Part shown: positions 18,174 to 33,189 of the stretch, piece after piece | Numbering within the stretch: the first letter of the stretch is position 1 | How the letters are laid out: every line of letters starts with the position of its first letter | IMG/VR virus record: IMGVR_UViG_3300044511_000013 | Coordinates: 8,438 to 72,437 of that record | DNA: 64,000 nt | Strand: one strand, 5' to 3' | Source of the DNA: a virus | Translations under genes and position numbers: made by a program | Notes under the pieces: generated by a model | Told to the model about the DNA's origin: nothing | Database searches by the model: none | What the model saw: only the letters and a program-made list of their open reading frames with translations

Positions 18174-18770
18174 TCACGCTCCCTGCTGGCTGTTGATGTA
18201 CTGCTCGTACGACTCCGGCGTCAGCGCTTGCACGTACGCCTCCTCGCTGGTGAGCAACGGGTTCTGGTCCCGGAGGCTCTTGGCGATGGTGTCGATCTGC
18301 TGGGTGATCTCGCCGCCCGGCATGGCCGAGCCGATCTCCTCGAACAGCCTCGACTCCTTGACCGCCGTCGACGCCTTGGTGAGCGCCTCGACGGTCTTGT
18401 CGTAGGCCCCGGTGCCGTGCACCGCCTTGAGGGTCTCGACAATCTCGGCCTCGGGCATCGCCAGCCCGGAGAGGCCCTTGGCGATGTCGGTGATCTCCCG
18501 GTCGATCCGGGCCTGGCGCTCGGCCTTGGCAACCTCGGTGGCCTGTTCGGCTACCGCACGGGCCTGGGCCAGCTCGCCGTAGAGGCTCTTGACGATCGTC
18601 TGTGCTGCCGGGTCGAGCGACTTGAAGACGGTCTCCAGGTCGCTGTCATCGAACTTGGTCACGGGCTCGGGGTCCTCCTCGTGCTTGAGAATCTCGTCCT
18701 CCAGCTTGGTGATGTACTCCTGGACCCAATCGTCGAGGGCCTCGAAGTCGCCCTTTGCGGTTCCGGTCAT
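18174..18770 (-). CDS. Capsid scaffolding protein
   Basis: Start reassigned to MTGTAKGDFE (GAGAGGA RBS); acidic coiled coil with repeated xxKS/KA; FEEIGS motif. Confidence 0.7.
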   Translation of the reverse strand: MTGTAKGDFEALDDWVQEYITKLEDEILKHEEDPEPVTKFDDSDLETVFKSLDPAAQTIVKSLYGELAQARAVAEQATEVAKAERQARIDREITDIAKGLSGLAMPEAEIVETLKAVHGTGAYDKTVEALTKASTAVKESRLFEEIGSAMPGGEITQQIDTIAKSLRDQNPLLTSEEAYVQALTPESYEQYINSQQGA

Positions 18771-18832: not shown

Positions 18833-19840
18833 CTACGAGCCCCTGTAGCCCTCTTGCCACCATGCGGGGTTGTCCCGTACCCCGAGGGTGCCCCAGTTGA
18901 TGTTGCTGTTGGTGCTGTTGCGCCACCACTCGGAGTCGTTGAGGTCCGTTGCCTTCTCGCCCAGCAACCGGTCCAACAGGCTCTTGCGCTTGGGCTTGGC
19001 GGGCTTCGGTGGCTCGGCCATCTTGCGGTCCCTCAGCGCCTTGCGCTTGGCCGCCGACGATGCTGCCGTGAGGGCGATCGCCGTCTTGTCGGTGTCCCAG
19101 TTGGCGTCCGCTGCCTCGACGGTGTTGCCGGTCAGCTTGCGCCAAGCGTCCTGCGAGAAGCCGTACTGGTTGCGCACACCGTCGCCAGTGTCCTCGGCCA
19201 ACGCCTTGAACCAATCGGCCGGGGTCTTGTTGTAGCGCTTCGCCTGGTCCCGCCAGTCCGAACCCGGCATCCCCTCGTCCGGTGCGTTGTCCCCGCCCAA
19301 CCCCTTGACGTGCTGATTGCCCCGGAAGGGGTGGCCCGCCTCGCCGCTTGGGCCTGATCCACCGCCGCCCACCTTGACGTACTGGTTCCCACGGAACGGG
19401 TGTCCGGGGAAGTCACCCTTGGTGATCTTGGGCTTGGTGGGGTTCGGGTCGTCCTTCTTGGGAGGCTCCTCGCCGTCGACCATGAGCTTCTGGCGCAGCT
19501 TGGACCGCTTGTCGGTCGGCTTCTTGCGCTCAGGTATCTCCGGCTTCTCGTCCTCGGGCTCCTCGGCCTCACGGTCCTCGTCGAGTTCGTCCTTCTCGTC
19601 CTCGTCGAGGTCGGCTTCCTCGGTCCTGGGCTCGGGCTCGTCCTTCCCTGCAAACGGCTTCTTTTTGCCCTTGGGCTTCTCCGAACCGAGCGGCCGGTCG
19701 ACATGGGTGTCGCCCCCGTCGGGTTCGGCCTTGGACACATCCCGCTTGAAGATCATCACTTCGGCACCGGGCTCAGCGGGTCGGTCGACCAGCGACACCC
19801 GACGCAAGCGGACCTTGCGGAGACGAGACACCCGAGCCAT
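18833..19840 (-). CDS. Protein with prohead-protease terminal strand (VSLVDRPA), charged linker and two GHPFRGNQ tags
   Basis: N-terminal LRRVSLVDRPAEPGAEVMIFKR; tags at 19379-19420 and 19310-19345. Confidence 0.65.
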   Translation of the reverse strand: MARVSRLRKVRLRRVSLVDRPAEPGAEVMIFKRDVSKAEPDGGDTHVDRPLGSEKPKGKKKPFAGKDEPEPRTEEADLDEDEKDELDEDREAEEPEDEKPEIPERKKPTDKRSKLRQKLMVDGEEPPKKDDPNPTKPKITKGDFPGHPFRGNQYVKVGGGGSGPSGEAGHPFRGNQHVKGLGGDNAPDEGMPGSDWRDQAKRYNKTPADWFKALAEDTGDGVRNQYGFSQDAWRKLTGNTVEAADANWDTDKTAIALTAASSAAKRKALRDRKMAEPPKPAKPKRKSLLDRLLGEKATDLNDSEWWRNSTNSNINWGTLGVRDNPAWWQEGYRGS

Positions 19841-19879
19841 CCCGGCCAGCGTACGAGTGTGCGCCGTGCAGGTGTTGCT

Positions 19880-21136
19880 CTAGCCGAGCAAGCGGAACCG
19901 GAGCTGATCCCGAGCCTCGTCGTTGCAACCGAGGCACGGTGTGCGCTTCTTCAGGTCCGCCCCGATGCCCACTCCGGGGATGCCCCAGTCCTCGGTGAAC
20001 TGGTTGGCCTCCACGAGCACGTCGAGGATGCTGGCGTTCACCCGGCGTATCGGCAACTTGATGTCGCCTTCCTTGTTGTCCTCAAGGTCCACCGCCACGG
20101 CAGCCGCCCAACGGTGGTGGCCGTCGATCACGTAGTTGTCGGCCGACACGAAGATGGAGCCCGAGCCCAGGTCCATCGAGCCGTCCTTGATGCTCGCCAC
20201 CATCCCGGCGACGTTGGCACCGTCCAGCTCATTCTGCGTGGCCTTCAGGTAGCTCGCCAGCTCGGACCCCTCGGACACGTCGATGCCCTTTGACTCCATG
20301 TGCTGGACGAACTGTTCGGCGAGGTTGACCCGGCCCTTGTTGTCCCGAGGCTGCTTGTCGGCCTCAGACCCCTCGACCGGCGTCTTGGTGGTGAACTGCG
20401 GCATCTTGAGCCTGGGGATGCCCTTCGATTCGGTGCAGAACAAGTTGGTCCCCGGCACCGACACCTTGCACAGGTCGTAGGTGGGGGCCTTCTCGCCCTT
20501 GGCCACGGCGTCGTCCACTATCTCCTTGAGCTTGCTCAGCAACGTGCTGACTTCCCGCTTCGAGGAGAGTTCGACGTGGTACCCCTCGGCCAGCGCCTTG
20601 ACGGCCTCGTCGACCGTCTTGGCCCGCACGGTCTCGCCCTTCTTGGGCTTGCGGCCTCCGTACGCCTCCAGCTCGGCCTTGGCCTCCGCCTTGCCCGGAG
20701 ACTGGCCTTGCTCCGCCCACCTCGCTGCATCGAGCGTGTCGAGCCGAGGCCGGGAGAGACGGCTGCGCAACCGGTCCCGGAGGGTGGAGCGCTGCTTCGT
20801 CTTCTTCGGGCCGCCGCCACCGATGCCCCCGGTGTGCTGATTGCCCCGGAACTTGTGGCCTACGGCCTCGCCCTTGGCCAACTTCTGCTTGCGGTACTCA
20901 TCGAGCACCTCGTAGTACTGCTCTCGGGTGAAGGCACCCCGGTCGTTGGCAGCGTCCACGGCAAACCACGTGTGTGACCGATCAACCTCAAAGGCGTAGC
21001 CGTCCCAGCCGTTCTGCCAGTTCCGGCGCACCGAGTAGGGCACTTCCTCGTGCCGCACAAAGGGGTACGAGAGGATGAGCGCCTTCTGCGCTGGCCAGTC
21101 GCCCTTCAGATCGAGCAGGTCGGTTTCGAGGCTCAT
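19880..21136 (-). CDS. Tagged ParB/Srx-like domain protein
   Basis: Start MSLETDL (ATGA overlap); KGEAVGHKFRGNQH tag; LKATQ.EL and IFVS.DNYVIDGHHRWAA. Confidence 0.7.
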   Translation of the reverse strand: MSLETDLLDLKGDWPAQKALILSYPFVRHEEVPYSVRRNWQNGWDGYAFEVDRSHTWFAVDAANDRGAFTREQYYEVLDEYRKQKLAKGEAVGHKFRGNQHTGGIGGGGPKKTKQRSTLRDRLRSRLSRPRLDTLDAARWAEQGQSPGKAEAKAELEAYGGRKPKKGETVRAKTVDEAVKALAEGYHVELSSKREVSTLLSKLKEIVDDAVAKGEKAPTYDLCKVSVPGTNLFCTESKGIPRLKMPQFTTKTPVEGSEADKQPRDNKGRVNLAEQFVQHMESKGIDVSEGSELASYLKATQNELDGANVAGMVASIKDGSMDLGSGSIFVSADNYVIDGHHRWAAAVAVDLEDNKEGDIKLPIRRVNASILDVLVEANQFTEDWGIPGVGIGADLKKRTPCLGCNDEARDQLRFRLLG

Positions 21137-22572
21137 CCCGCCGCCACCAGTCGACCACCTTGCGTGCCATCCCACACCTGCCAGCCTCGATCGGCGAGGT
21201 GCTTGACCTCCTCGAAGGCACGCCGGTTCACGCTCGAATACACCGGGTCCCGTGACTCCTCGACCACGCTCTCGGGCACATAGCGCCCGCCAAGGGGCGT
21301 CAACAGCGAGTCCATGTAGCGCTTCCTGATCCGCTGCTTCGACACCTCCACCGGCACGTCCATGAACAACAACCGGAGCTTGTACTTCGGGCCGTTGTCA
21401 TCGAGGAGCGGCTTGAGCCGCTTGTGAACCTGGCCGGGGTTGCTCATGGTGATGTCCCAGATGAAGTTCACACCAACCTCGCTGGCTGCGTCAGCGAGCC
21501 TCTTGGACAAGTCGGCAGCCTCCTCGTGGTACAGCTCGGCCAGCTCCATGGGCTTGAAGTAGTCAAGCTCCTCGAACTCATCGGGCAGCCCCGCTCGCTC
21601 CGCCAAGATGACCTTGAGGTCGTCGTTGCTGATGTTGAGGTACAGCTCCTTGGGCAGCCCCGCCCTCGGGTCCTTGAGCATCGTTGACTTCCCGGCACCA
21701 GGCAGGCCACCGGTCATGGCCACCTCGGCCTGGCGAGGCACGTTGGCGGCTTCCGCCATGATCTCGTCGATGATCTCGTCGTGGAGCTTGCGGCGCTCAG
21801 CGATGTAGCCACCGGTCTCGGGGTCGGTGTAGTACCCCTTCGTGTCGAGTCCGGCGTCCATGTAGCGCTTGTTGGTTGCGGTCACGAGTTCGAGGTGATC
21901 CAGGACCGCCTCGGTCAGCTCGCCAGTGGCGTCGTAGTGCGCCACGGCCTCCTTCACCCACGGCTCATCGTTGGTCCACGGTTCGACGGGCCTGCCGGGC
22001 TTCGAGGTAACCCGGCTGAGTGCGTGGGATGCGGTCGGTGGGGTCTTCCCCCGTGACGGCACCTTGACGTACTGATTCCCACGGAAGGGATGACCCTCGA
22101 AGTCACCCTTGGCCAGGTCGTCGGCGTCGAGGTACTCACGGTGCCCCGAACCGCCGACCGAGAAGCCCTTGTAGCGCCCCGACTTGACCTCTTGCCACAC
22201 CCGGTCGTCCCGGACCTTGAAGCCGACCCACCAGGCCATCGGCAGCGTGCCGTCGGGCACGCCCATCTTGGCCAACTTCTCCGGTGTGAAGGCCATGGAC
22301 TCCACCAGGTCGGCCACCGGCACGTCGTAGTGCATCTCGTCGCCGAGGCGTGACTCCAGAGCGAAGTGGTACGCCATGTCCTCCAGCTCGGCCGGGTCGT
22401 CGATGAAGTCGCCTTGCTTGTCGATGCGCAGCGAGCCGTCCGGGTTGGTCGCTCGGTAGGCCCAGCCGAACACGAGCCTGCGGTCCTCATCGAGCTTGAG
22501 CACGTCGTCAGTGGCGTCGGCGAACTCGGTCTCACCGAGCAACCGTTGACGGAGCATGGCCCGAGATGTCAT
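21133..22572 (-). CDS. XkdF-type prohead protease fused to a zeta-toxin-like P-loop kinase
   Basis: RLVFGWA..D.QGD..EMH..WWVGFKV.DD.VW..VKSG.YKGFSVGG; then tag; then GGLPGAGKS, ISNDDLK, WDITM, DVPVEVS..R..R..GGRYVPE. Confidence 0.8.
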   Translation of the reverse strand: MTSRAMLRQRLLGETEFADATDDVLKLDEDRRLVFGWAYRATNPDGSLRIDKQGDFIDDPAELEDMAYHFALESRLGDEMHYDVPVADLVESMAFTPEKLAKMGVPDGTLPMAWWVGFKVRDDRVWQEVKSGRYKGFSVGGSGHREYLDADDLAKGDFEGHPFRGNQYVKVPSRGKTPPTASHALSRVTSKPGRPVEPWTNDEPWVKEAVAHYDATGELTEAVLDHLELVTATNKRYMDAGLDTKGYYTDPETGGYIAERRKLHDEIIDEIMAEAANVPRQAEVAMTGGLPGAGKSTMLKDPRAGLPKELYLNISNDDLKVILAERAGLPDEFEELDYFKPMELAELYHEEAADLSKRLADAASEVGVNFIWDITMSNPGQVHKRLKPLLDDNGPKYKLRLLFMDVPVEVSKQRIRKRYMDSLLTPLGGRYVPESVVEESRDPVYSSVNRRAFEEVKHLADRGWQVWDGTQGGRLVAAG

Positions 22573-23516
22573 TGGTCCAGTATCGCCTTGCGGAGCCGGT
22601 CACGGGCGCTCTTGGGGCCGATGTGAAACACCCGGCCGAGCGACGCATGGTGCGAGCCGGTCACGTCGTAGGCGTTGTCTGCGTCCGAGCTGGCCTGGGC
22701 CATGGCAGGTCGCTGCCGCCGTGCCTTGAGCAGTCGGACGAGCGCAGCCAGCCGCTTGCGCAGCTCCTCGGGCAGTAGCAGCACCTTCTGTGGGCCGAAG
22801 TAGCCCCGCTGGATCAGGAAGGCGTTCTGGCCCCGCAGCTCGGTGGCCGCAGCCTTGGCGGCCTCGGTGCTGAACATCGACAAGTGAGCCTGGTAGGCGG
22901 CCTCCTCACCGTGCCGGTCGAACGCACGGCCGGTCCCGAGGTGGCCGAAGGCATCGTGCACCGCCCGGAACTTGTCATTCTGTTCGTTGGTGAGGTACGG
23001 GTGACCCCCGGTGGCCTCCGTCTTCAGAATCTTGAGCCGGTTGTGGCTAAGGAAGTCATCGAGCATCTCGGCGTAGTTCGCATACGGGTCGTCGTCGGTG
23101 TACTCGATCTTGATGCCGAGCTGATCGGTCAGGATCGAATACTGCTTGTCCAGCTCGCCGATCAGTGCCTCGTAGGCCCGCCGAACCTCTGCATCCGGCA
23201 CGGCGTCCTCGGGGGCCTCCTCGTAGAACTTGGCGATGGCCTCCCGCCGCTCCGGCGTGATCGCCCGTGTAGCGCTCCAGTCACGCTGATCGCCGTGGAA
23301 CTTCTTGAGGGCCTTGACCGGCGTGGCCATGACCATCTCGACGCCATCGTGCGACGTGATGGATCGGACCTGGCCCGAGACCTTGACGTACTGATTCCCC
23401 CGGAAGGGATGACCCTCGTAGTCGCCCTTCTTGATCCGTGCGAGTTGCCGCTCGTCGTCGTCCTCACTCGTGTCGAACGGCCACACGCTGATCTCGTCCA
23501 GCCCGAGGTACTTCAT
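22569..23516 (-). CDS. Tagged protein with NDxFRAVHDxFGH domain (possible zincin-like)
   Basis: Start MKYLG (ATGA overlap); KGDYEGHPFRGNQY; NDKFRAVHDAFGH..GEEAAY..H..MFS..TE.RGQN. Confidence 0.6.
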   Translation of the reverse strand: MKYLGLDEISVWPFDTSEDDDERQLARIKKGDYEGHPFRGNQYVKVSGQVRSITSHDGVEMVMATPVKALKKFHGDQRDWSATRAITPERREAIAKFYEEAPEDAVPDAEVRRAYEALIGELDKQYSILTDQLGIKIEYTDDDPYANYAEMLDDFLSHNRLKILKTEATGGHPYLTNEQNDKFRAVHDAFGHLGTGRAFDRHGEEAAYQAHLSMFSTEAAKAAATELRGQNAFLIQRGYFGPQKVLLLPEELRKRLAALVRLLKARRQRPAMAQASSDADNAYDVTGSHHASLGRVFHIGPKSARDRLRKAILDQ

Positions 23517-26500
23517 GCGCTGCCTCCCGGTGCGAGTGTGGCGTCCAGGTCGGTCTCCAGCTCCTTCTCCAGGTACCAATGCCAGGAGTTCAGGCCGGTA
23601 CTGACATGCCGCCACTTCCAGCCCTCCGGTGGAGGCGTCTTGGGGTGGAAGCCAGCAACCTTCTCGCTGGTGCTAGTGACGATCATCTCGTGCACCAGGC
23701 TCTTGTACGCCATCTTGAGCTTGTGGGCCACATTGAGCGGGCCTTGGAACACCGCCTTGTCGTACTCGTTTAGCGCATACCCCATCGTGATGGCCGCCTG
23801 GGCTTCTACGGAATCGGAGGACCAGCCGCCCGTCTCGGTGAAGTGCTCCGAGGCTACCAAGGCCGGGGGCAGCAGAGCTTTCGTGGCAGGGATGCGCTCC
23901 AGGTACCACTGGTTCTGGACTATGCCGCTGCCGAGGTACCGCCACCTCCAGCCCTTCGGTGTCGCCACCTTGGTCAGATCGGGTCCGGCTGTGGTCCAGG
24001 AGGCGTGAAGTTCGTTGTAGGCATTCCACGCCGCCGCCAGCGTCATGCCCCAGTTGTCGTAGAGGTAGTTGGGGTCGACGGACCAGGCATCCGATGCCGT
24101 GTCCCATGAGCTGTAGCCGAACGTGGCCGCCGCTTTCGCCTTGGCCCCCCCGACCTTCCATCCTGACTGGGTGAGCTGACCGGTCAATGTGAGGTAGTGC
24201 GGAAGTTCGTGGGGCTTCGCAGCGCTCGGACCACTGGGATCGGGCTTCTCGGCAACCGGCCCGTCGGGGTCGTAGTCGAGGAACCACTGCCTCGCCACCA
24301 GGCCCGTACCGATGTGACGCCACGCCCAGCCTTTCGGCGTGACGAGCTGGGCAACGGCGTCTTGCTTGATCCAGCCGCCCGGCGAGTCCTCCGAGAGGTT
24401 CGTCATGGCGGTGTAGGCATCTGCAATCTCATTCGGGCTCACGTTTCCGCTCCCGTCCAGCGGTGCGTTGGGCGTGAACACCTCACTCCAGTCGGCCCAG
24501 CCGAGCGTGATCGCAGCCTTGTCCTCGTCCTCGATGGTGTGAAGCCAACCGATCTCGTCCGGGTAATCCACGTCGTCTGCCACCCACTGCCAGGCACCCG
24601 ATTCGGTGATCCACTTGGGCACCTTGTCGGCAGGACCTGGCAGAAGCTGAGGATGGTCGGGTTGATCGGGTTGATCTATCGGAACCGGGTTCTCGGTGGC
24701 GATCTTGAGCCCGTAGTTATACGCCATGGCTCTGTGGGCATCTCCCGCCATGACCGACCAAGCAAACCCCGGTGGGGCGATCGGCAAGGGGTTCCCGGCC
24801 ACGACGGCAACGGGGTGCACGAACTCCCCCTCCACTGTGCTGCCGTCGCCCCAGGTGATCCAGCTCCCGGCAACCGGTTGGCTCAGAGTGCTGCCGTAGC
24901 CCTCCTGGTAGTAGCTACTCACGAAGTCTTTGTGGACTTCGGAGAACTGGTTGGCGAACTCGGCGATGCTCTTGGGCGGCGAGTACGTCTTCCCGTTCCA
25001 CTCGATCCCCAGCTCCTGAGCCAGCGGCTTCTCCGGGGCCTCCGGGGTCTCGGTCGAAGCCGCCAGCGCCGCTCCCATCACCGTGTCGGGGTCGGCCAAC
25101 CGCTCGGGTATCTTCTGCGCCAGCCACTTGCTGTGGGAGATGTAGGGCTTGCTGGAGGTGGGCAAGGCCACGAACTCAGGACTGGTGGTCTGGACCGTGC
25201 GCCCAGGACCGGTCGAGAGGTTCGTGGGCACCAGCACCCAGTCTTGCGGCATCGCCCGGTAGTCGTCCAATGAGGCCCATTCGGTCCTGGCCCACTTGTA
25301 CCCCTCGGGCGGATCGAAGTCGTACGGGTGGCCCAAGGTGTCCAGCTCGGTCGGGTGGATCACAAAGTCGGTCCCCGGATAGGTCAAGGTGGACGCAGGC
25401 AGGTCGACTCCGGGCTTCAGGTCGGGCTTCTGAATCCACATCTTGGTACCCAACTCGTAGGTCTTGGGGACCTTGAGCTGCCATCGCATTCCTTGCACCG
25501 GCAGCAGGTTCGGTATGTCACTGCTGCACTGCTGCCACCTGTTGTCGGCGACCAGCTCGGGGTTGCGAGCCACGCCCTTCTCGGCCTGGGACCACGCTGG
25601 CGCACGGATACCCGAGGAGAGAAGGGGCCTGCTGGCCAAGCGGCTGGCCTGCGCCTCCACCGCCGACGATTGGGTCACGCCCTTGAAGGGGTCGATCACA
25701 CCGACCTGGCGGATGTCGACAACCCACGCACCTGAGAACTCGCTGTTCGAGTCGTGCCTCGGCGTGATCGCAGTGACCTCGTAGCGACCGCCCGTGGCCC
25801 ACTCGTGTTCGGAGACGAATGCGGGGGACTGGCCGACATCCTTCCAGTGCTGATTGAACTTGAACGCCTTGGCTCCCGGAGCCAGCCGGAAGATGATCGA
25901 GTGCGGGTTGTTGCCCGCATAGCTACGAGCCATGGACTTCGATGTCGTGAAGCCCCAGGCAGGCACGTCGATGACCGCACCGGGAAACAGGTTGGCCTTC
26001 TCCCGGAGCGTGTCGAGGTCGGTCACGTCCCCGATCTTCAGCTTGGCCTTGCCCCGGTACAACGGCTGCGTCGTCGGAGCGCTCACCTTGATCCGCTCCA
26101 GCATGGCCAAGGCCGGGGCCAGGTCAACCTGGTCGTACCTGAACTGGCGTACGACCGGCTTGTAGCCGGTGACCGCCTCGATGGCCTTGCGGATGGCGGT
26201 CGGGCTGCCTTGCCAACTGTGGATGGCGTAGTCGAGTGCCTTCCCTTCCGACCCGCCCCACTGCGTCTCTTGCAGCAACGCCCGGTACTGCCCCAGGCTG
26301 AGCGGCATCCCGGTCTTGTGGCTGGGGCCGTAGACCTTGAGCTTCTTAGCGGCCGCCTTCTTGGCTGCCTTCTTGGCAGTGGCCGCCCACTGGGTGAGCA
26401 TGTTGCCGTCATCGAGCTGATCCCGGCCACCTCGTGAAGGCACCTTGACGTACTGATTGCCCCGGAACGGGTGTCCTTCGTAGTCGCCCTTCTCGAACTC

Positions 26501-26521
26501 GACGACCTCGGTCAGTTCCAC
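23513..26521 (-). CDS. Tagged ADP-ribosyltransferase-like protein with Trp-rich C-terminal repeats
   Basis: N-terminal tag; LYRG, GFTTS..MA..YA, IIFRL..GAK, EHEW follow the R-S-ExE ART pattern. Confidence 0.7.
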   Translation of the reverse strand: MELTEVVEFEKGDYEGHPFRGNQYVKVPSRGGRDQLDDGNMLTQWAATAKKAAKKAAAKKLKVYGPSHKTGMPLSLGQYRALLQETQWGGSEGKALDYAIHSWQGSPTAIRKAIEAVTGYKPVVRQFRYDQVDLAPALAMLERIKVSAPTTQPLYRGKAKLKIGDVTDLDTLREKANLFPGAVIDVPAWGFTTSKSMARSYAGNNPHSIIFRLAPGAKAFKFNQHWKDVGQSPAFVSEHEWATGGRYEVTAITPRHDSNSEFSGAWVVDIRQVGVIDPFKGVTQSSAVEAQASRLASRPLLSSGIRAPAWSQAEKGVARNPELVADNRWQQCSSDIPNLLPVQGMRWQLKVPKTYELGTKMWIQKPDLKPGVDLPASTLTYPGTDFVIHPTELDTLGHPYDFDPPEGYKWARTEWASLDDYRAMPQDWVLVPTNLSTGPGRTVQTTSPEFVALPTSSKPYISHSKWLAQKIPERLADPDTVMGAALAASTETPEAPEKPLAQELGIEWNGKTYSPPKSIAEFANQFSEVHKDFVSSYYQEGYGSTLSQPVAGSWITWGDGSTVEGEFVHPVAVVAGNPLPIAPPGFAWSVMAGDAHRAMAYNYGLKIATENPVPIDQPDQPDHPQLLPGPADKVPKWITESGAWQWVADDVDYPDEIGWLHTIEDEDKAAITLGWADWSEVFTPNAPLDGSGNVSPNEIADAYTAMTNLSEDSPGGWIKQDAVAQLVTPKGWAWRHIGTGLVARQWFLDYDPDGPVAEKPDPSGPSAAKPHELPHYLTLTGQLTQSGWKVGGAKAKAAATFGYSSWDTASDAWSVDPNYLYDNWGMTLAAAWNAYNELHASWTTAGPDLTKVATPKGWRWRYLGSGIVQNQWYLERIPATKALLPPALVASEHFTETGGWSSDSVEAQAAITMGYALNEYDKAVFQGPLNVAHKLKMAYKSLVHEMIVTSTSEKVAGFHPKTPPPEGWKWRHVSTGLNSWHWYLEKELETDLDATLAPGGSA

Positions 26522-26525
26522 CAGG

Positions 26526-28535
26526 TCATTCTGGCAGGAGCCGGTCCCGAAGTGACGCTCTGCGCTCGGCGTCCTCGACGGTCTCGTCGTCCAGTGCAGG
26601 GTCGTGCGGATACCCGGAACAGGACTGCTCGAACTCGACGATGGCGATGATCTTCGGCTTCTCAGCCTTGGTCACGGGGGCATCGTGCTCGGCCATGGCC
26701 ACCACCTTCGTCACCATGTTCATCATGTACGGGTTGAGCTTGCGTTCCTTGCCCTTGGTGACCTTGTACTTGTCGGCGTACATGTAGGCGAAGGTCTCGG
26801 CGAAGTGCTCCGCCCCGGAATCCTTGGCGTACTCGCTTGGGGTCGGGGCTGAATGAGCACCGGGGAACCCCAGCGACTGGTCGAGGCCCTCGTGCAGCAC
26901 CGTGCCGTTGAACTGCCACAGCTCTCCGGCCTCGGGCAGCTTGAGGTTCTCGGTCAGCCACCGCTGCCTGGCTCGGTTGTAGATGGCGTGCCCCATCTCA
27001 TGCAAGAGGATGCCCGACAACCCCGAGTCGGTGGCCAGCCAACCCGTCTTCATGCTCTGGTCGCTGGAGGCCGGGGAGTGCTGTGAATTGAGCCCGATCC
27101 CGTGCACAAAGCGGTACTTGGAGTCGGCTTGCTGAGCTATGCCCATCGTGGTCGCCCCGCCACATTCTGCGCCGAGAGTGGCGTTGTACTCCCCGAGCCG
27201 GAAGGCATCGAGGCCCCGGAGCGTCTCGGGGAAGTCCTGAGCGACCTTGCGCAGTGTCTTGGCCATCGCCTCGATGTCGGCTTCAGTGACCCCTTCGGTG
27301 GCCCCGGTCACTTGCCACCCAGGAGGCCATTTGGAGGGATCGGATTTGAGCTGAACCTTGGCGTTGGGCATGTAGCGCTGGAACTCCTGCGTCAGGCGTT
27401 TCGTCGTCGGTGAGTCGCCGCCGCTCACGTGATCAAAGAACAACTGGTTGACGTACTTCGGGTGCTTGGCCGTCTGGTGGAAGCCATGGACCCCCGGCAT
27501 CGGGTTGTTCCCGGCGCTCGGCACCTTGATGTACTGGTTGCCTCTGAAGGGGTGACCGGGGTAGTCGCCCTTGATGAGCCACTCGGACGGCTTGGTCTTG
27601 CGTGCCCGCCGCCGTGCCCGCTCTGCGATGAAGTTCTCCCGCCAGGCATCGAGCGACTCTCGGGCTCGGTCCTCGGCCTCCCGCCGTTGTTCCTGGTAGG
27701 TCTTCTGGCGTGGCTTCCGCCGTCTGCCGAACAACGGGTCGATGTCCCAGTTGGGTCCCAAGCCCATCGACGGCACCTTGAGCTGCCGTGACTCCAGCAC
27801 CATGCGCCAGCGTGATGCGTTCGATGGGCTGATCCCGGCCTTGAGCCAAGCCCGCTCCACCTCGTCCACGTCGACATCGAGTATCCGCCTCAGCGAACTG
27901 AGTGCCTGATCGTCGGTCATCCGGCCGTACATGAGCTTGCCTTGATTGGACGTGCGCATCGTCTCGGGCTCAACCCACGGCCCGATGCTGAAGCTGTCCT
28001 TGGTACCGCCCATCGCCCGGAAGGCCATCGCCCCACCGGACTCGATGCGCACCGGCATCCCGGCCTCGTCCACGAGCGTGTTGTCTTGCTCCAGCCCGTG
28101 CACGTCCCAGTGCGAGAGCCAAGCGTCGATCCCGAAGTCCCGAGCGGCCCGCTCCTGGAGCGTGGCGTTGCTGGCCCACTCGGAGGCGCTCGCCTGGCGG
28201 AGTCCCTCGATCTTCTTGCTGATGATGACCGGACGGCCCGAGTCGTCGTGGTCGAACCTCGTCAGAGGGAAGTGCACCCCCGCCATGCGGTAGACGATGC
28301 CCCCGGCGATCTCATTCTGCACGTGGTCTTCGCTCTTGCCCGGCTTGACCAGGTAGCGCTGGCCCTCGGCGTCCTCGTACCACTGGCCGCCTTGGCTGCC
28401 GAGCGGACCCTTGACCTTTTTCATCCGCTTGATCGTGTCGTAGCCGGGAATGCCGCCCGTGTGCTGATTGCCACGGAACGGGTGCCCCTCGGCTTCGCCC
28501 TTGAGCAACCGGTAGCGCAGGCCAACCCTTGTCAT
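26526..28535 (-). CDS. Two-tag protein: HipA/PI3K-like kinase + HExxH metallopeptidase
   Basis: Start MTRVG (ATGA overlap); GSQGG..YLVK..NE..DAWL.HWD...DN..VRIESG; second tag; LLHEMGH..SEYA....EHFAE. Confidence 0.7.
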   Translation of the reverse strand: MTRVGLRYRLLKGEAEGHPFRGNQHTGGIPGYDTIKRMKKVKGPLGSQGGQWYEDAEGQRYLVKPGKSEDHVQNEIAGGIVYRMAGVHFPLTRFDHDDSGRPVIISKKIEGLRQASASEWASNATLQERAARDFGIDAWLSHWDVHGLEQDNTLVDEAGMPVRIESGGAMAFRAMGGTKDSFSIGPWVEPETMRTSNQGKLMYGRMTDDQALSSLRRILDVDVDEVERAWLKAGISPSNASRWRMVLESRQLKVPSMGLGPNWDIDPLFGRRRKPRQKTYQEQRREAEDRARESLDAWRENFIAERARRRARKTKPSEWLIKGDYPGHPFRGNQYIKVPSAGNNPMPGVHGFHQTAKHPKYVNQLFFDHVSGGDSPTTKRLTQEFQRYMPNAKVQLKSDPSKWPPGWQVTGATEGVTEADIEAMAKTLRKVAQDFPETLRGLDAFRLGEYNATLGAECGGATTMGIAQQADSKYRFVHGIGLNSQHSPASSDQSMKTGWLATDSGLSGILLHEMGHAIYNRARQRWLTENLKLPEAGELWQFNGTVLHEGLDQSLGFPGAHSAPTPSEYAKDSGAEHFAETFAYMYADKYKVTKGKERKLNPYMMNMVTKVVAMAEHDAPVTKAEKPKIIAIVEFEQSCSGYPHDPALDDETVEDAERRASLRDRLLPE

Positions 28536-31183
28536 GTGCCGACCTCCAGCAAGCGGCTGCGCAGGTCCGTTCGGGCCTTGGCAACCCACCACTCGCCCGG
28601 CTTGTCCAACTCCACCACGGCATCGACAAGCTCGAATGGGATGGGCTGCCGGTTCTTGGCGTACTCGTCGGTGGCGAAGTACCACTCGGCGTTGGGATCG
28701 ACTTTGATGCGCACGATCACAGCATCGGTCGCCTTCGTCTTCTCCATCGGGAAGTAGAAGGCCCCGGTGCTCCGGGTCGAAGCCACCGTACCCTCGTTGC
28801 CGATGTTCTCCTCGCCCTTGGTCTGAATGAAGCCACGGGCCTGGGCCTCGTCGTACTCCCGCCGATCCATCACTCTGAACACGTGCTGAAGCTGCCGGGG
28901 AGGCCCGACCTTGACGAACGGCCTTAGGCCGTAACCCGGTCGCATCTCGCTCTGGTCGTAATCGGCGACGGTCTTGTCCATGGGCATCGGTGTCCAGTAC
29001 TGGTACTCCAAGCCCATGCGGCCGACGATGTGGCCCTCGTCATCCCAGGCCACGACCATCCTGGCCTCGATCTCACCTTCCTTGAGGTGAACGCCGCCGC
29101 CCACCTTGTTGGGTGCGTACCGCTCCGGGTAGAACCGCTTGGGGTCTTGGAGCAACTTGGCCTCGTCGGTGAGGATGGCGTCCCAGGCCGCCGAGGTATT
29201 GCCTCCCGGCACGCTGATCTTTTTCGGCTGGTGGACGGCCGTCGGTTGGCTCCGGCTGCCCACCTTGACGTACTGGTTGCCCCGGAAGGGGTGGCCCTCG
29301 AAGTCGCCCTTCTCGATGAGCGCAGGATCGGCCGGGTACCCGGAACAAGACTGCTGAACCTCGATGATGGCCCCGATCTCCAGCTCGCTCTTGACAACCT
29401 TGTCGTACCGGAGAGGTGCGTCGTGCTCGGCCAAGGCGACCACCTCGGTCACGAAGCTCACCATGTCCGGGTTGAGCTGACGGTCCTTGCCCTTCCTGAC
29501 GCCGTACTTGTCGGCGAACATGTACGCAAACGTCTCGGCGAAGTGCTCATCGAAGTGCTCTTTGGCGTACCGACTCGGGTAGACGGGCGACCAGAGGTTG
29601 TCGACTCCCATCACCCACCGGAACGTGGTGTTGGTAACGAGACCCTCGAACTGGAAGCGGTCCCCCGGTTCCCTCGGCTTCGTGAACCCGTTGGTGAGCC
29701 AGCCGTGCTTGGCCCGGTTGTACACAGCGTGCCCCATCTCGTGCAGGAACGTGCCCGAGAGCCCCGAGTCGGTGGTGAGGTAACCCGAGTCCACGCTCGC
29801 ATCGTGAAGGCTGGGCTTGGACGCTGCATTGAACCCGATCCCGTGGATGAAACGGACCTTGGTGGAGTTGGCAAGTTGAGCGATGGCGAACGTCGTAGCC
29901 CCACCAGCCGTCTCGCCAAGCTCGCCGCCGTAGTACCCGAAACGAAATGCGTCGAGTCCCCGCAATGTCTCGGGAAAGTCCTGAGCAACCTTGCGCACCG
30001 TCTTGGCCAGCGCCTCGATGTCTGCCTCGGAGACTCCTCGGCCGGGGTCCCCCGGCATGAGCGAGACCTTGGCATTCGGCATGTAGCGCCGGAACTCCTT
30101 CTCCAGACGGTCCATCGTCGGCGTGATAGGGGGGATCGGGTCGCTGATGAACACGTGCGATAGGTACGCCGAAACCGGATGGTCCTGATAGCCCAACTGC
30201 CTTGCCGGGTCCGGTGTCCCGGCACTGGGCACCTTGACGTATTGGTTCCCACGGAAGGGATGACCTGGGTAGTCGCCCTTCTGTAGCTCCTCGATGAAGC
30301 TGGCGGCTGCCGGTGCGAACACGAGCCCCATCGTGCAGCGGCACTGGGGGTGCGCAGCCGGTCGCTCGAACACGCCGTACTTGCCCTCGAAGCTCTTGCC
30401 GATCGCCGCCAGCCTGCCGTGCAGGTCGGCGCATATCTCGCAGCGCTTCTCGTCCTTGGCGGTGATCCACACCCGCTTCGTGAACTCGGGGTCGGGGTCG
30501 ATCATCCCGGCGTCCACTCCCGCTACCCAAGCGTCATCGAGACCGAGGTTCTGAGCGTGCATGATCTCGGTCCTGGCGATGTTCCACGCCCGGTAGGTGC
30601 GGAGCCGTGTCGAGTAGGCCGCCACCTGAGCCCGGCGTGCCGCAGTGTTGACGCCCCGCTTGCGCAGCCCGGCATCGAAGTTGGCGACCGCCTGAGCGTG
30701 CTGGGGGAGCAACCCCACGAGACGCCGGATGAGCGGCACGGCGTCGTCGATGGCCCCGCCGCCCCGGACGATCGTGTCGAGGACCTGGCGAATAGACTCC
30801 TGGGTCGGCGATGTCGTCGCCACCAACCGGTGCGAAAGCTGCGACATGGACTCAACCGCCCACGGGTTCGTGGCGTTGAAGGTCAACTTGGCCGGAACCA
30901 TCGCCGAGACAGCCGCAGAGCCCGCCTGAGCGGCGTGGAGGTACGCCTGGGCCACCAGAGCCCGGATTTGCTCCAGGTCCAGCCACAGGCCCTCTAGCGC
31001 TGAGGCACTGGGATAGACGCCCCGCTCCATCTCGGTGAGGACCTTGCGCAGCGCATCGGAGCGATTGAGCCGCCCCACTGAGCGCAGGAAGGCACGGGCG
31101 ATCTGAGGCTCAAGCTGATTCGAGACGAGCCGCAGCACCCCCGCCAGCCTGGCCCCGTCGATCTGGACGTTGGCACCGGCCAC
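28532..31183 (-). CDS. MuF-like minor head protein fused to a tagged HExxH peptidase and a tagged C-terminal domain
   Basis: RA.NIARTE, W.TA.D...C.IC..LHG, HPQCRC (MuF); two tags; FLHEMGH..SRYA...EHFAE. Confidence 0.85.
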   Translation of the reverse strand: MAGANVQIDGARLAGVLRLVSNQLEPQIARAFLRSVGRLNRSDALRKVLTEMERGVYPSASALEGLWLDLEQIRALVAQAYLHAAQAGSAAVSAMVPAKLTFNATNPWAVESMSQLSHRLVATTSPTQESIRQVLDTIVRGGGAIDDAVPLIRRLVGLLPQHAQAVANFDAGLRKRGVNTAARRAQVAAYSTRLRTYRAWNIARTEIMHAQNLGLDDAWVAGVDAGMIDPDPEFTKRVWITAKDEKRCEICADLHGRLAAIGKSFEGKYGVFERPAAHPQCRCTMGLVFAPAAASFIEELQKGDYPGHPFRGNQYVKVPSAGTPDPARQLGYQDHPVSAYLSHVFISDPIPPITPTMDRLEKEFRRYMPNAKVSLMPGDPGRGVSEADIEALAKTVRKVAQDFPETLRGLDAFRFGYYGGELGETAGGATTFAIAQLANSTKVRFIHGIGFNAASKPSLHDASVDSGYLTTDSGLSGTFLHEMGHAVYNRAKHGWLTNGFTKPREPGDRFQFEGLVTNTTFRWVMGVDNLWSPVYPSRYAKEHFDEHFAETFAYMFADKYGVRKGKDRQLNPDMVSFVTEVVALAEHDAPLRYDKVVKSELEIGAIIEVQQSCSGYPADPALIEKGDFEGHPFRGNQYVKVGSRSQPTAVHQPKKISVPGGNTSAAWDAILTDEAKLLQDPKRFYPERYAPNKVGGGVHLKEGEIEARMVVAWDDEGHIVGRMGLEYQYWTPMPMDKTVADYDQSEMRPGYGLRPFVKVGPPRQLQHVFRVMDRREYDEAQARGFIQTKGEENIGNEGTVASTRSTGAFYFPMEKTKATDAVIVRIKVDPNAEWYFATDEYAKNRQPIPFELVDAVVELDKPGEWWVAKARTDLRSRLLEVGT

Positions 31184-31186
31184 GGG

Positions 31187-32860
31187 TCACCGCTGCTTCT
31201 TGGCAGGCACCGGACGCCTGCCCGGAGGGGTAGGCGGAGGCGTCGGTGGAGGCATGGGCGGAGGTGCGTTGCCCATCGGCCCCGGAGGTGGCTGCTGCTT
31301 GTCCTTCTCGTCGTCGTCCTTCTTGCCCTTCTCGTCCTCGTCCTCGTCGTCGGGCAACTGGTACCCGGCACCGGCCAGCATCCCGGCCCCGGTCTCCATG
31401 CCGCCCTCCGCCATGAGCATCTGCTGATCCCGCATCTGCGATTCCAGCTCGGCCGACTCGATCTCGTTCTGGCGGGCCAGCTCGGCCATCTCCTCTCGGT
31501 GGGCCAGGTCCTCGTCGGTCATCTCCGGGAGCTTGGCCGCTGCCCGCAGGTACTTCTCCAGCTCGGGGTCCGGGAAGAACGGCACGCCCGCTGCACTGAG
31601 CTTGCTGATGAAGTCGGAGAGCTGGGTCAGGTCCGGCTGCTCGATGTCGCCAGGCACGATCTCAGGGTGGTCCTCCAGCTCCATGCCGTTGACTTCGAGC
31701 AAGCGTGGGATGGCGTGGCGGTTGATGACCCCGGCGATCGTCTTGAGCAAGCTGCCGAGGCTCAAGCTGAAGATGTTGGTCTTGTCGGAACTGAGGGCGT
31801 AGCTGCCCACGTCCTTGTGCCCGAGAAGCACGAAGTCGGCCAGCACGGTCATGGCGATGTGCTCGGCGTAGCGCCGGATGATCGGGTCGGTCGGAAACTG
31901 GCGGGTCCCCGCACTGGCGAGCAACTGGAACTCGTACACCAGGTTGTTGTTCTGGTCGTAGACCCGAGGGAAGACCACGCCCTCCTGCTGATCCCGGCGC
32001 ACGTTCTTGACCAGCTTCTCGATCGACGTGCGCATGGCCACGTCGCCCGCCGCTGCATCGGGACTCAAGATGGCCGGGTCCACGTAGGCGATCGGCAGAC
32101 CGGCCAGGTCCCGCTCGACGCCGATGGCCTCGATCTCCTCGATGCGCTTCTTGAAGTACCACGGCCGGTAGGCGTTGCGCAGGATCGACCGGCCCTCGGG
32201 ACTGTTCTTGTACGTCGTGGTGCGGAACAGGAGTGCCTTCTCGATGGGGATGTAGACCAGGTTGTTCCTGGGGATGGCGTACTGCCAGAAGCCCCGGATG
32301 CCGCCGTGGTCATCGAAGACCCACTTGGCGAGCGTGTCCTGTGCCCGCAGTGCGAACTTGCGCCATGCGATCCGGTCGTCGTCGTAGCGAGACCGAAGTT
32401 GGGGCGTCTCGGCCTGCGGACCCCTGCGCAGCTTGTAGACGATCTCGAAGAAGCTCCAGCCGTACGGCAGCATCGACATGACCTCGGAGATGAAGTCCTC
32501 CCAGGTGTGGCTCATGTCGTCGATGCACTGCTGGAGGAACTCGACCCGGCCGTCGTCCTCCTTGCCGGGGGACTCGACCCGCCACTCGACCTGGCGCACG
32601 AGCGTGTCGATCGCCTGGAGGATGGCCCCGATGATCGGGTCGTTGTCCCGCATCTCCCGGTAGACCTGGACCCCACGGGTCCCTTGGAGGTGCTGAAGGA
32701 ACTCCTCGTTGACGTACCCGGACCATCTGCGCAGGCCCGACTGGCCCAGTTCGAGGTAGCCGAGGCCGTCGATCTCGACAACAACCCCGTCGGGAATCTC
32801 CGGTGCAGCGAAGGGGTGCTGGCCGTTGGGGCCGTTGGGGAGGTTGTCGACGAAGGTCAT
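31187..32860 (-). CDS. Portal protein (Mu gp29/DUF935-like)
   Basis: E+G.SG, Y.EM..ND..+, YGWS.FE.VY, GRS.LR.AY..W.FK, G.ERDLAG.P, GS.AL motifs. Confidence 0.9.
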   Translation of the reverse strand: MTFVDNLPNGPNGQHPFAAPEIPDGVVVEIDGLGYLELGQSGLRRWSGYVNEEFLQHLQGTRGVQVYREMRDNDPIIGAILQAIDTLVRQVEWRVESPGKEDDGRVEFLQQCIDDMSHTWEDFISEVMSMLPYGWSFFEIVYKLRRGPQAETPQLRSRYDDDRIAWRKFALRAQDTLAKWVFDDHGGIRGFWQYAIPRNNLVYIPIEKALLFRTTTYKNSPEGRSILRNAYRPWYFKKRIEEIEAIGVERDLAGLPIAYVDPAILSPDAAAGDVAMRTSIEKLVKNVRRDQQEGVVFPRVYDQNNNLVYEFQLLASAGTRQFPTDPIIRRYAEHIAMTVLADFVLLGHKDVGSYALSSDKTNIFSLSLGSLLKTIAGVINRHAIPRLLEVNGMELEDHPEIVPGDIEQPDLTQLSDFISKLSAAGVPFFPDPELEKYLRAAAKLPEMTDEDLAHREEMAELARQNEIESAELESQMRDQQMLMAEGGMETGAGMLAGAGYQLPDDEDEDEKGKKDDDEKDKQQPPPGPMGNAPPPMPPPTPPPTPPGRRPVPAKKQR

Positions 32861-33189
32861 GCCAACGCCGCCATGATCTGGATGACGTTGTGGCCGTCAT
32901 TCGGGAAGGTCGCCGTCTTGGTGTCGGGGAAGGTCACTTCCCACTCGGCGTAGTAGTGCCCGGCTGTGTCGACATCGTTGGCCGCCCAGTCGTAGCGCAC
33001 CGTGTGCAGCGTGGCGTCCACGATGGCAGCAACCTGCCGGTTGACCTTGATGACGTTGGTAAGCACGTTGGTCATGGTGAACCGCACCGTGCTACCGGTG
33101 AGAGACCACGTGACCCCCGAGCTATCGCTCAGAGTGGCGTAGATGCTCGGGGACCGATCCCCGACCTTGAGCGAGAAGTCGGCCATCAA
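32857..33189 (-). CDS. BppU-N-like virion protein
   Basis: K.GD..P.+...L.D...LTG.TV.F...V.Y.W...D....G.Y.AE.EV.F.D....TFP. Confidence 0.6.
   Translation of the reverse strand: MMADFSLKVGDRSPSIYATLSDSSGVTWSLTGSTVRFTMTNVLTNVIKVNRQVAAIVDATLHTVRYDWAANDVDTAGHYYAEWEVTFPDTKTATFPNDGHNVIQIMAALA

Follow-up and report, generated by a model that had tools for sequence, protein, structure and literature searches.

What is one short peptide, repeated ten times across seven consecutive head genes of a single phage, doing for the proteins that carry it? The question was raised by the virus record IMGVR_UViG_3300044511_000013 (72,437 b, rated complete by CheckV), of which bases 8438–72437, referred to below as the window (64,000 nucleotides, G+C content approximately 65%), were analyzed. 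On the minus strand of the window the head genes follow the order Mu-type portal gene, seven genes designated g7 to g1, scaffold-like gene and major capsid gene, and the seven co-directional genes fill the 12.3-kb interval at positions 18833–31183 (Table 1). Our best explanation, to which we give an even chance, is that the interval serves as a cassette of cargo genes within the head module and that the peptide, here called the tag (tag A where it has to be told apart from a second header, tag B), would be a cut site and a header signal in one.

The copies in the cassette follow the pattern h-x-K-G-[DE]-x-x-G-H-[PK]-F-R-G-N-Q-[YH], where h is a hydrophobic residue. Six-frame translation of the window gave GHPFRGNQ nine times and GHKFRGNQ once, on the minus strand only and always within the open reading frames (ORFs) of 18833–31183. 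The back-translated DNA pattern, with up to two mismatches allowed, matched 10 times, as against a mean of 0.01 in shuffled sequences, none of the 100 shuffles reaching 10. The whole 72,437-b record contains nine exact copies, none of them outside the cassette. Over 16 codons (48 nt), the 45 pairs of copies were 60–94% identical in their bases (mean 76%), and only 66% of the codons were identical at positions with the same residue. Because the copies vary at synonymous sites, it is the peptide and not the DNA that is conserved, and selection acts at the protein level. All nine full copies have a hydrophobic residue (L/I/F) at P3 and Lys at P1 ahead of G-[DE], P1 being the residue directly before the Gly and P3 the one two places earlier; the second copy in g1, without the K-G-D front half, reads P-S-G-E-A-G-H-P-F. 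In the AlphaFold2 (AF2) model of the g4 protein the tag is a coil with a predicted local distance difference test score (pLDDT) of approximately 50–68 amid an otherwise confident model, as expected if it behaves as a linear motif.

The genes are tightly packed. Start and stop codons overlap as ATGA at four junctions (g7/g6, g5/g4, g4/g3 and g3/g2), the start lies 3 nt from the upstream stop at portal/g7 and 4 nt at g6/g5, and a 39-nt gap precedes g1. These overlaps and short spacings imply that the genes are translationally coupled, and they leave no room for small interleaved ORFs on the same strand. At least two unrelated effector-type domains share one polypeptide in g7 (MuF, peptidase and C-terminal domain), in g6 (kinase and peptidase) and in g3 (protease and zeta). 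An earlier note, made from the letters of this DNA, is thereby borne out in several claims: that the copies are confined to seven mostly stop/start-coupled genes between the portal and the scaffold-like gene, that they vary synonymously under selection on the peptide, that some tagged domains are fused to MuF (g7) or to the prohead protease (g3) whereas others stand alone, and that no immunity ORFs are interleaved. Its ten like copies are better counted as nine full tags and the shortened second copy of g1.

The tag proved not to be a private feature of this phage. In 2.9 million viral contigs the exact eight-residue core was present in at least 114 stretches and at least 173 in-frame copies, with up to 9 per ORF. 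The extended consensus reads x-[K]-G-D-x-x-G-H-P-F-R-G-N-Q-[W/Y/H]-x-x-G, mostly followed by a Gly-rich stretch, and G, H, F, R, G, N and Q were invariant across 143 diverse copies, although variants such as G-H-x-F-H-G-N-Q-W occur. The profile of these 143 copies, searched against 1.84 billion cluster representatives, matched 1579 proteins at E≤1e-3 (292 at 1e-10 and 48 at 1e-30); the number 1579 is a lower bound, single weak copies scoring below the threshold. A search of 185,579 prokaryote species, each represented by a single genome, gave 50 stretches with the core pattern and 26 in-frame matches. Both the G-D front and an aromatic residue after Q were present in 17 of the 26, in 16 loci; the other in-frame matches were chance frames with neither feature and served as an internal control. 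No Pfam family covers the tag, the best-shared family occurring in only 8 of 88 tag-bearing ORFs, and the tag profile had no match in the PDB at E≤10. Literal-string and concept searching of the literature found no description of the peptide in the passages, titles and abstracts covered.

The position of the tag within proteins was equally consistent. The 150 best profile matches carried on average 3.3 copies at a median spacing of 225 aa; the first copy lay within 60 residues of the N-terminus in 76 of them, and in just one did 30 residues or fewer follow the last copy. The tag thus heads modules rather than closing them. A MuF, portal, capsid, terminase or XkdF gene was fused or adjacent in 70 of 108 tag-bearing IMG/VR loci, while the 38 loci without a head gene were shorter stretches (median 5.9 kb vs 9.0 kb). 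The Pfam tally of the 88 tag-bearing ORFs comprised MuF (8), S78_2 (4), S78 (2) and three portal families (4 together), as well as ART-PolyVal, Zeta, ADPrib_exo_Tox, NUDIX, 2H and others. MuF was considered as a universal partner of the tag and rejected: PF04233 was detected in 9 of 19 large tag-bearing contigs and in 2 of the 4 that are at least 90% complete, within the limited sensitivity of Pfam. Among 50,697 phage records, tblastn with a 32-aa tag window returned one true match, Xanthomonas phage Rb1; a motif of this length is beyond the sensitivity of BLAST, and this result is uninformative on cultured phages in general. The Rb1 protein, the one cultured example found, annotated as "internal head protein" (XPA09464; PQ569993, 51801–55466; locus L123), has 1221 aa and one D-type tag, ALDGDFSGHPFRGNQH, and its gene sits between a DarA-N-like gene on one side and a metallopeptidase gene and a 2238-aa helicase-like gene on the other. 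A 201-aa piece of it matched only itself. The subfamily of the Rb1 protein, in which the tag is followed by RK-x-SR-x-SG-x-AV, was also seen in several Proteobacteria proviruses (L134, L141, L144, L165, L169 and L172).

The residues in front of the conserved Gly bear on cleavage. Among 210 copies, the residue before G-D was K in 147, L in 22, F in 11 and D in 8, with others making up the rest, and P3 was hydrophobic or Ala in 193. This residue co-varies with the protease family: the S78_2 protease was detected in 7 of 9 Lys-type contigs vs none of 9 contigs with Leu, Phe, Asp or Met before G-D, and at 23 loci with an XkdF homologue the dominant residue was K in 21, R in one and S in one. Searches for S78 and DUF2213 in 19 contigs gave three weak S78 matches and one DUF2213 match. 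A tripeptide [IVL]-[EDGQ]-K lay 9–32 aa behind the protease domain in 24 of 31 extended XkdF homologues, as against 22 of 164 control windows. The second header, tag B, reads [LIV]-x-K-[FY]-N-P-x-H-D-x-x-G-R-F-[TAS] with a Gly-rich stretch behind it, and occupies the same types of junction, i.e., after XkdF proteases and before g4-like domains. At XkdF loci K directly preceded tag B in 53 of 53 copies, all 53 having L/I/V at P3, and tag A in 17 of 18. Finally, five ORFs at three loci begin with ATG-G-D and have no earlier in-frame start. The functional unit would therefore begin at the Gly, and cutting after the preceding residue elsewhere would yield the same N-terminus as that of the ORFs starting with M-G-D. 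A prediction of a complex between the XkdF protease domain and the tag peptide, run without controls (score 0.01, mark 0.32), counts neither way. As a side observation, cleavage of tag B after its Lys would leave an N-terminal Phe or Tyr.

The sequences show the anatomy and distribution of the tag, the shuffling of modules and the co-variation with the protease family; cutting, packaging, ejection and any role of the core we infer, in the following scheme. Seven translationally coupled late genes would encode at least 12 modules. MuF and the XkdF-type prohead protease would be ordinary internal head parts, and the enzyme-like cargo would comprise two zinc peptidases, a HipA/PI4K-like kinase, a probable ADP-ribosyltransferase (ART), a zeta-like kinase, a ParB/Srx-like module, a metal-site domain and others. 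Each cargo module would be headed by an unstructured peptide of approximately 17 residues and then a flexible linker. The front h-x-K may be the cleavage site of the XkdF-type prohead protease, analogous to I/L-x-E for T4 gp21, so that the prohead would be the place where fused modules are separated and short leaders trimmed off. G-D-x-x-G-H-P-F-R-G-N-Q-aromatic would then be the common new N-terminus of every released module. The core would perform a conserved job irrespective of the phage lineage, and our guess is that it keeps the module in the DNA-filled head or lets it leave together with the DNA. Because the core is independent of portal, capsid and protease type, its partner would be one common to all heads; DNA is suggested as an example, as a candidate only.

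Several observations weigh against this explanation. The g4 domain occurs without tag A in 69 of 80 loci, and many of its homologues are stand-alone proteins of approximately 250–300 aa, so that the domain by itself does not depend on the tag. Rare tags lie at the extreme C-terminus with no module behind them (P0122, L010). Half-tags at the N-terminus, two of which are present in this phage (see below), were rejected as a general feature, none of 8 half-tags among 111 loci being near the N-terminus. Two of the nine Lys-type contigs (87% and 69% complete) have no detectable S78_2. The co-variation of P1 with the protease family could reflect shared ancestry, the contigs not being independent lineages, and Lys may simply be part of tag B everywhere, given that tag B was sampled at XkdF loci only. 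A three-residue cut site, moreover, does not explain why the eight residues following it are invariant across differing portals, capsids and proteases. The suggestion of the earlier note that the Lys is the site of prohead protease cutting has gained indirect support, from the P1/protease co-variation, the tag B prefix, the sites behind XkdF and the M-G-D starts, and this support is correlative only. Its view of the peptide as a portable header of cargo modules in head modules is upheld by the tag-bounded segments described below and by the 70 loci with a head gene.

The invariant core is the point from which the strongest rival starts. The tag could be a binding motif that is never cut, recognized by a conserved partner (packaged DNA, the capsid interior, the portal channel or, after injection, a conserved host factor), with the beads-on-a-string protein remaining intact, the repeats serving to hold or deliver every one of its domains, and the Lys a lineage-specific part of the motif. 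A core unchanged across differing portal, capsid and protease families is more in keeping with a conserved ligand than with a protease site; on this view it also fits that the tag is disordered on its own in the AF2 model, that C-terminal tags exist, and that plasmid-borne polyvalent proteins are thought to be transferred whole (PMC5512222). We nevertheless consider a binding-only tag unlikely. It would be redundant where a module is already fused to MuF, portal or protease, and MuF does not accompany the tag everywhere (9 of 19 contigs). It explains neither the hydrophobic-x-[lineage residue] prefix common to two unrelated tags and the link to the protease family, nor why the same modules are separate in this phage yet fused in a relative.

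That relative illustrates how the modules are exchanged. Since every segment shares the tag, modules were compared after its removal from query and database. Tag-delimited segments with the same domain were found for the g4 domain (14), the ParB-like module (18), zeta (7), the protease (16) and MuF (12), with alignments running from tag to tag. Contig L334 encodes, beside its portal, a single 1216-aa protein (P0015) with four tags in the order MuF-tag-ART-like-tag-small domain-tag-kinase-tag-zeta, in which the kinase is 60% identical to that of g6 and zeta is 40% identical to that of g3; its MuF, ART, kinase and zeta modules are distributed over four genes in the phage studied here. The next genes of L334 encode a g2-N/peptidase-like and a g5-like protein, and a related-loci search with P0015 in viral contigs gave no match. 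In other phages the XkdF protease is joined via the tag to a ParB-like module instead of zeta. Tag-bounded modules therefore shuffle as portable units, and the tag as their portable header in head modules is supported. In the peptidase gene of L334 (approximately 6097–6789), the reading frame differs between the HExxH region (frame 1) and the ...LRDELLAD end (frame 0); an error in sequencing, a disrupted gene or frameshifting could be the cause.

Such exchange might require nothing beyond a joint. Conserved peptides, VENN and similar ones, precede variable toxin domains in polymorphic toxins, and the tag could likewise be a conserved linker or hairpin that marks points of recombination and contributes to neither loading nor cutting. 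In favor of this, the exchange of modules takes place precisely at tags, a tag and a peptidase have been duplicated as a unit (55% identity), and junctions of one type can be filled by either kind of tag, both of which are found together in single proteins (L014, L067). The copies, however, diverge synonymously (mean 76%, down to 60% over 48 nt), which makes them a poor substrate for homologous exchange; the invariance of the core in 143 diverse copies goes far beyond what a linker needs, and a joint offers no explanation for the association of the preceding residue with the protease family. We rate a passive joint as slightly less probable than the binding-only tag.

A locus of MuF-type polymorphic toxins for bacterial competition, with the tag as the pre-toxin boundary, is very improbable. 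A MuF N-domain followed by variable enzyme domains, some of them toxin-like (zeta, ART), would suit it. Against it, no immunity gene was found at the locus behind the toxin-like domains, the downstream genes all being large and tagged, and the genes of the cassette overlap or are separated by 3, 4 and 39 nt; the majority of tagged modules have no MuF fused to them; and the motif is rare in bacteria (17 copies in 185,579 species genomes) vs at least 114 stretches in 2.9 million viral contigs. The MuF polymorphic toxins of temperate phages consist of a MuF N-domain and variable C-terminal toxic domains and are encoded beside the portal gene (Jamet et al. 2017, PMC5576092). The cassette resembles them in having MuF and variable domains adjoining the portal, and differs in having no immunity genes, in combining several modules in each protein and in tagging modules that are not joined to MuF; the main text of PMC5576092 does not contain the words linker, cleav-, junction or boundary. 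Equally improbable is a tag acting alone, as a self-cleaving peptide (e.g., through His-aided Asn cyclisation at G-N-Q) or through ribosomal separation of modules, for although H, R, N and Q are conserved to an extreme degree in all lineages and the tag stands at every junction of giant ORFs, it has no predicted fold, matches no known self-cleaving family, lies in some proteins 6–8 residues from the N-terminus, at the N-terminus or at the C-terminus, where separation would serve nothing, and its lineage-specific prefix would be unexplained.

Under the preferred explanation, a cargo cassette with a cut-and-header tag, one close parallel is phage T4. The T4 capsid targeting sequence (CTS) of IPI-III and Alt is a conserved leader that binds the scaffold core and is cut off. 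The likeness to the T4 internal proteins and Alt would lie in cargo carried in the head, a probable ART among this cargo and a short N-terminal signal ending in a hydrophobic-x-[specific residue] protease site. The differences are several. T4 conserves the leader, whereas here the conserved part follows the presumed cut and would be left attached to the cargo; the leaders here are unconserved and 6–30 residues long, or absent (M-G-D starts); the tag is common to phages of very different head types and also punctuates polyproteins; and the protease is of the XkdF type with Lys at P1, not Glu, the T4 prohead protease gp21 cutting at I/L-x-E (PMC12991175). Alt and the MuF context are also discussed in PMC5512222.

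That paper describes polyvalent proteins as strings of 2–15 effector domains (ART, metallopeptidase, ParB-like, kinases), adjoining portal/terminase genes or fused to MuF or portal, which were proposed to be packaged and injected, and it discusses their autoproteolytic or in-head processing (Iyer et al. 2017, PMC5512222). The cassette shares with them the multi-domain polypeptides among virion and packaging genes, here between Portal_Mu and the major capsid gene; it differs in that the repertoire is partly split into coupled genes, each retaining the tag, and in the junction peptide itself, of which we found no description in the passages covered of PMC5512222, whose main text contains neither "linker" nor "conserved motif". 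The Dar antirestriction system of bacteriophage P1 and the giant phages phiKZ and SPN3US are similar in that several head proteins are loaded during assembly and some are proteolytically processed, and the tagged "internal head protein" of Rb1 lies in a Dar-like block; a shared peptide header was not found in the descriptions of Dar proteins that we covered. Head processing sites of giant phages read x-x-E, and propeptides are removed there. Altogether, the cassette belongs to a known kind, the head-packaged polyvalent or MuF-linked effectors. What we did not find described are the repeated header, its spread, its coupling to a prefix specific to the protease type and its role as a unit of cassette exchange.

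The domain calls of the earlier note fared unevenly. Those of the protease and zeta were confirmed by Pfam, that of a HipA/PI3K-like kinase fold was supported by modelling, the ART and ParB/Srx calls stay at the level of leads, and the HEMGH peptidases match Pfam weakly. In g3, Peptidase_S78_2 (XkdF, PF14550) scored 67.5 bits vs a cut-off of 24 and covered profile positions 5–123 of 126, the protease being approximately 50% identical to its homologues. Zeta_toxin (PF06414) scored 60.5 bits vs a cut-off of 22.3 and the P-loop GLPGAGKST is present, by which the kinase module is firmly predicted to be zeta toxin/PezT-like. The MuF part of g7 matched phrog_3517 (head morphogenesis, E 3e-25), stayed below the cut-offs of both family models (PF04233, 28.2 bits, cut-off 29.6; TIGR01641, 21.5, cut-off 39.65), and was 31–55% identical to MuF segments in 16 tagged proteins. 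The HEMGH motif of g7 is at residue 481; the peptidase modules of g7 and g6 are mutually 55% identical, with Pfam matches at E 0.002–0.008. Relatives of the C-terminal domain of g7, the candidate for the possible second ART fold of the earlier note, were limited to its own cluster in the tag-free module comparison, and Pfam gave none at E≤10.

The AF2 model of the g6 kinase (pLDDT 78.4, predicted template-modelling score 0.79) had 20 Foldseek matches in the PDB at E≤1e-3, headed by CtkA (3akl_C, E 1.2e-4, TM 0.55) and including aminoglycoside phosphotransferases, actin-fragmin kinase and HipT; PI4K-II-alpha fell just above that line (E 1.3–1.4e-3). The motifs GSQGG and HWDVHG..DN, corresponding to a Gly-rich loop and a catalytic loop D-x-H-x-x-x-x-N, are conserved in the module. 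The model thus firmly predicts a bilobal protein-kinase-like fold of the HipA / PI3K-PI4K / CtkA group. The kinase had no Pfam match at E≤10 and no match in the related-loci search; the PDB sequence search of g6 gave none at E≤1 and that of the kinase profile one chance match.

In g5, the N-terminal domain is probably an ADP-ribosyltransferase, at lead level: 16 of its 30 nearest Atlas clusters were PF03496 (score 0.94, 168 shared features, guide value 170), and an R / STS / ExE triad was read by eye in the translation. Pfam gave no match to it even at E 10, and a PDB sequence search none at E≤1. Beyond residue ~300 (residues ~300–1002; window 23516–25621, minus strand), g5 consists of Trp-rich repeats, each ending P-x-G-W-x-W-R-x-x-G-x-G-x-x-x-x-W-[YF]-L; they had no family match, and the tail of g1 is likewise Trp-rich.

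The HDxxGH domain of g4, proposed in the earlier note, turned out to be a conserved family. The g4 protein matched phrog_3170 (E 6.5e-45), and H187, D188, H192, E204 and H211 were invariant in a 61-row alignment. The AF2 model (pLDDT 77, with residues 60–255 above 90) had no fold match in the PDB, the best values being E 0.13 by Foldseek and Z 3.3 by VIA-align, a second structure-alignment search. In BFVD it had 22 matches at E≤1e-3, inside MuF-type or polyvalent-type phage proteins with names such as ART-PolyVal-like and "large polyvalent protein associated domain". By model and alignment it appears to be a real, conserved and widespread metal-site family with an unmatched fold. In two loci the g4 domain stands behind a (K/E)-F-N-x-x-H-D-x-x-G-R-F repeat.

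The g2 protein matched phrog_2859 (E 1.6e-18) and the ParB-like phrog_1033 (E 9e-4), and D251, G252, H253 and H254 of its D-G-H-H-R motif were invariant in 8 homologues; the ParB-like profile had only insignificant matches in the PDB (E 1.7–3 over 13 residues), and a ParB/Srx-like module is a lead. For g1, the only family match was a weak one to phrog_21715. Its residues 11–31 (window 19750–19810, minus strand) contain R-V-S-L-V-D-R-P-A-E-P-G-A-E-V-M-I-F-K, and the element V-S-L-V-D-x-P-A-N-P recurs in tagged proteins of L009 and L011, ~50 and ~120 residues ahead of the tag.

Table 1. Cassette, neighboring head genes, tag copies and associated motifs (positions in the window).
Feature	Position	Strand	Description	Remarks
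Portal gene (Mu-type)	31187..32860	-	bounds the cassette upstream	PF06074 Portal_Mu 124.8 bits, cut-off 23.9; phrog_113 E 2e-85
g7	28532..31183	-	883 aa: MuF (1-301), tag, HEMGH peptidase module (302-624), tag, C-terminal domain (625-883) ending LRSRLL	
g6	26526..28535	-	669 aa, ATG 28535: LRYRLL, tag, protein-kinase-like domain (12-321), tag, HEMGH peptidase (322-669) ending LRDRLL	
g5	23513..26521	-	1002 aa: 10-residue leader, tag, probable R-S-E ADP-ribosyltransferase (~30-300), ~700 aa of Trp-rich repeats	
g4	22569..23516	-	315 aa, ATG 23516: 29-residue leader, tag, H-D-x-x-G-H...E...H domain, C-terminal LRxRL-like helix	
g3	21133..22572	-	479 aa: LRQRLL, XkdF-type prohead protease (1-154), tag, zeta-toxin-like P-loop kinase (155-479)	
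g2	19880..21136	-	418 aa, ATG 21136: N-domain, GHKFRGNQH tag variant, LRDRLRSRL, putative ParB/Srx-like module with D-G-H-H-R, LRFRLLG end	
g1	18833..19840	-	335 aa: VSLVDRPAEPGA element at the N-terminus, then an acidic stretch, two tags at a distance of 23 residues and a Trp-rich tail with SLLDRLL	
Scaffold-like gene	18174..18770	-	198 aa	named from its position between cassette and capsid gene; PHROGs of unknown function only
Major capsid protein	16718..17716	-	bounds the head module downstream	phrog_1005 major head protein E 3e-83
Tag 1 (g7a)	30239..30280	-	KGDYPGHPFRGNQY	
Tag 2 (g7b)	29270..29311	-	KGDFEGHPFRGNQY	
Tag 3 (g6a)	28461..28502	-	KGEAEGHPFRGNQH	immediately behind LRYRLL
Tag 4 (g6b)	27531..27572	-	KGDYPGHPFRGNQY	
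Tag 5 (g5)	26450..26491	-	KGDYEGHPFRGNQY	
Tag 6 (g4)	23388..23429	-	KGDYEGHPFRGNQY	coil, pLDDT ~50-68 in AF2 model
Tag 7 (g3)	22069..22110	-	KGDFEGHPFRGNQY	separates protease from zeta module
Tag 8 (g2)	20834..20875	-	KGEAVGHKFRGNQH	Lys in place of Pro; 2 mismatches in DNA pattern
Tag 9 (g1a)	19379..19420	-	KGDFPGHPFRGNQY	
Tag 10 (g1b)	19310..19351	-	PSGEAGHPFRGNQH	front half K-G-D missing
LRxRLL-type sites	28547-28564, 28503-28520, 26535-26552, 22537-22554, 20765-20782, 19886-19903, 18962-18979	-		
Tag B loci			second header	L208, L220, L289, L297, L301, L308, L316, L333 and others

Two further sequence elements accompany the tags. A half-tag without the core is present at the N-terminus of the scaffold-like protein, which begins MTGTAKGDFEA (K-G-D-F-E at residues 6–10; 18738–18755, minus strand), and in g2, as L-K-G-D-W at residues 10–14 (K-G-D-W-P at 11–15; 21089–21106, minus strand). 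The pattern K-G-[DE]-[FYWA] occurred 12 times in the six frames of the window, comprising nine tags, these two half-tags and one K-G-D-A at 61966, and L334 retains the half-tag in its g2-like N-domain. The second element is a basic amphipathic helix of the LRxRLL type, which is C-terminal in g7, g6 and g2, N-terminal in g6 and g3 and internal in g2 and g1; g4 ends in a variant predicted to be helical. Such a helix is found at the ends of six of the seven cassette proteins, a slightly wider pattern gives 8 sites in the cassette, and the near relative L334 keeps the element (...ALRDELLAD stop). It was rejected as a general second motif, since the other tagged proteins, 228 k residues in all, contained 16 matches, as against 6 in 4 k of cassette module segments. 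As a lineage-specific element, the helix could be an equally good candidate for a loading signal, or a capsid- or scaffold-binding helix.

In the surrounding head module, the start of the scaffold-like gene is preceded by GAGAGGA, and the phrog_1005 alignment spans capsid residues 1–331, which leaves no long propeptide. Just upstream of the portal, a 440-aa ORF (33186–34508, minus strand) consists of approximately 20 tandem units of ~20 residues (...ATEVDLALA-GKAKAKAF-TL...), and its sole match was a PHROG of unknown function (E 8.5e-23). Far upstream, a separate module encodes a DNA polymerase and a ParB-nuclease.

To our knowledge, proteins carried in the head and co-injected with the DNA are known for few model phages only, and we know of no general cargo signal outside the T4-like phages. 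The cassette holds several unstudied enzyme families, including the widespread metal-site domain without a structural match, and a peptide that stands ahead of cargo modules in 1579 protein clusters or more would be of practical use for picking out candidate injected enzymes of anti-defence or takeover in metagenomes. The tag would explain how phages exchange such enzymes in the form of ready-made cassettes and why one set of them forms a giant protein in one phage and several genes in another, and it offers a handle for studying protein loading into capsids. More tentatively, many tailed-phage lineages may share a few universal cargo headers, tags A and B, placed behind lineage-specific protease sites, as a cut-and-carry code. 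If so, any domain behind a header would be released in the capsid with the same N-terminus, kept with the DNA and leave with it; injected effectors would become readable from thousands of phage genomes, and foreign proteins could be loaded into heads by design.

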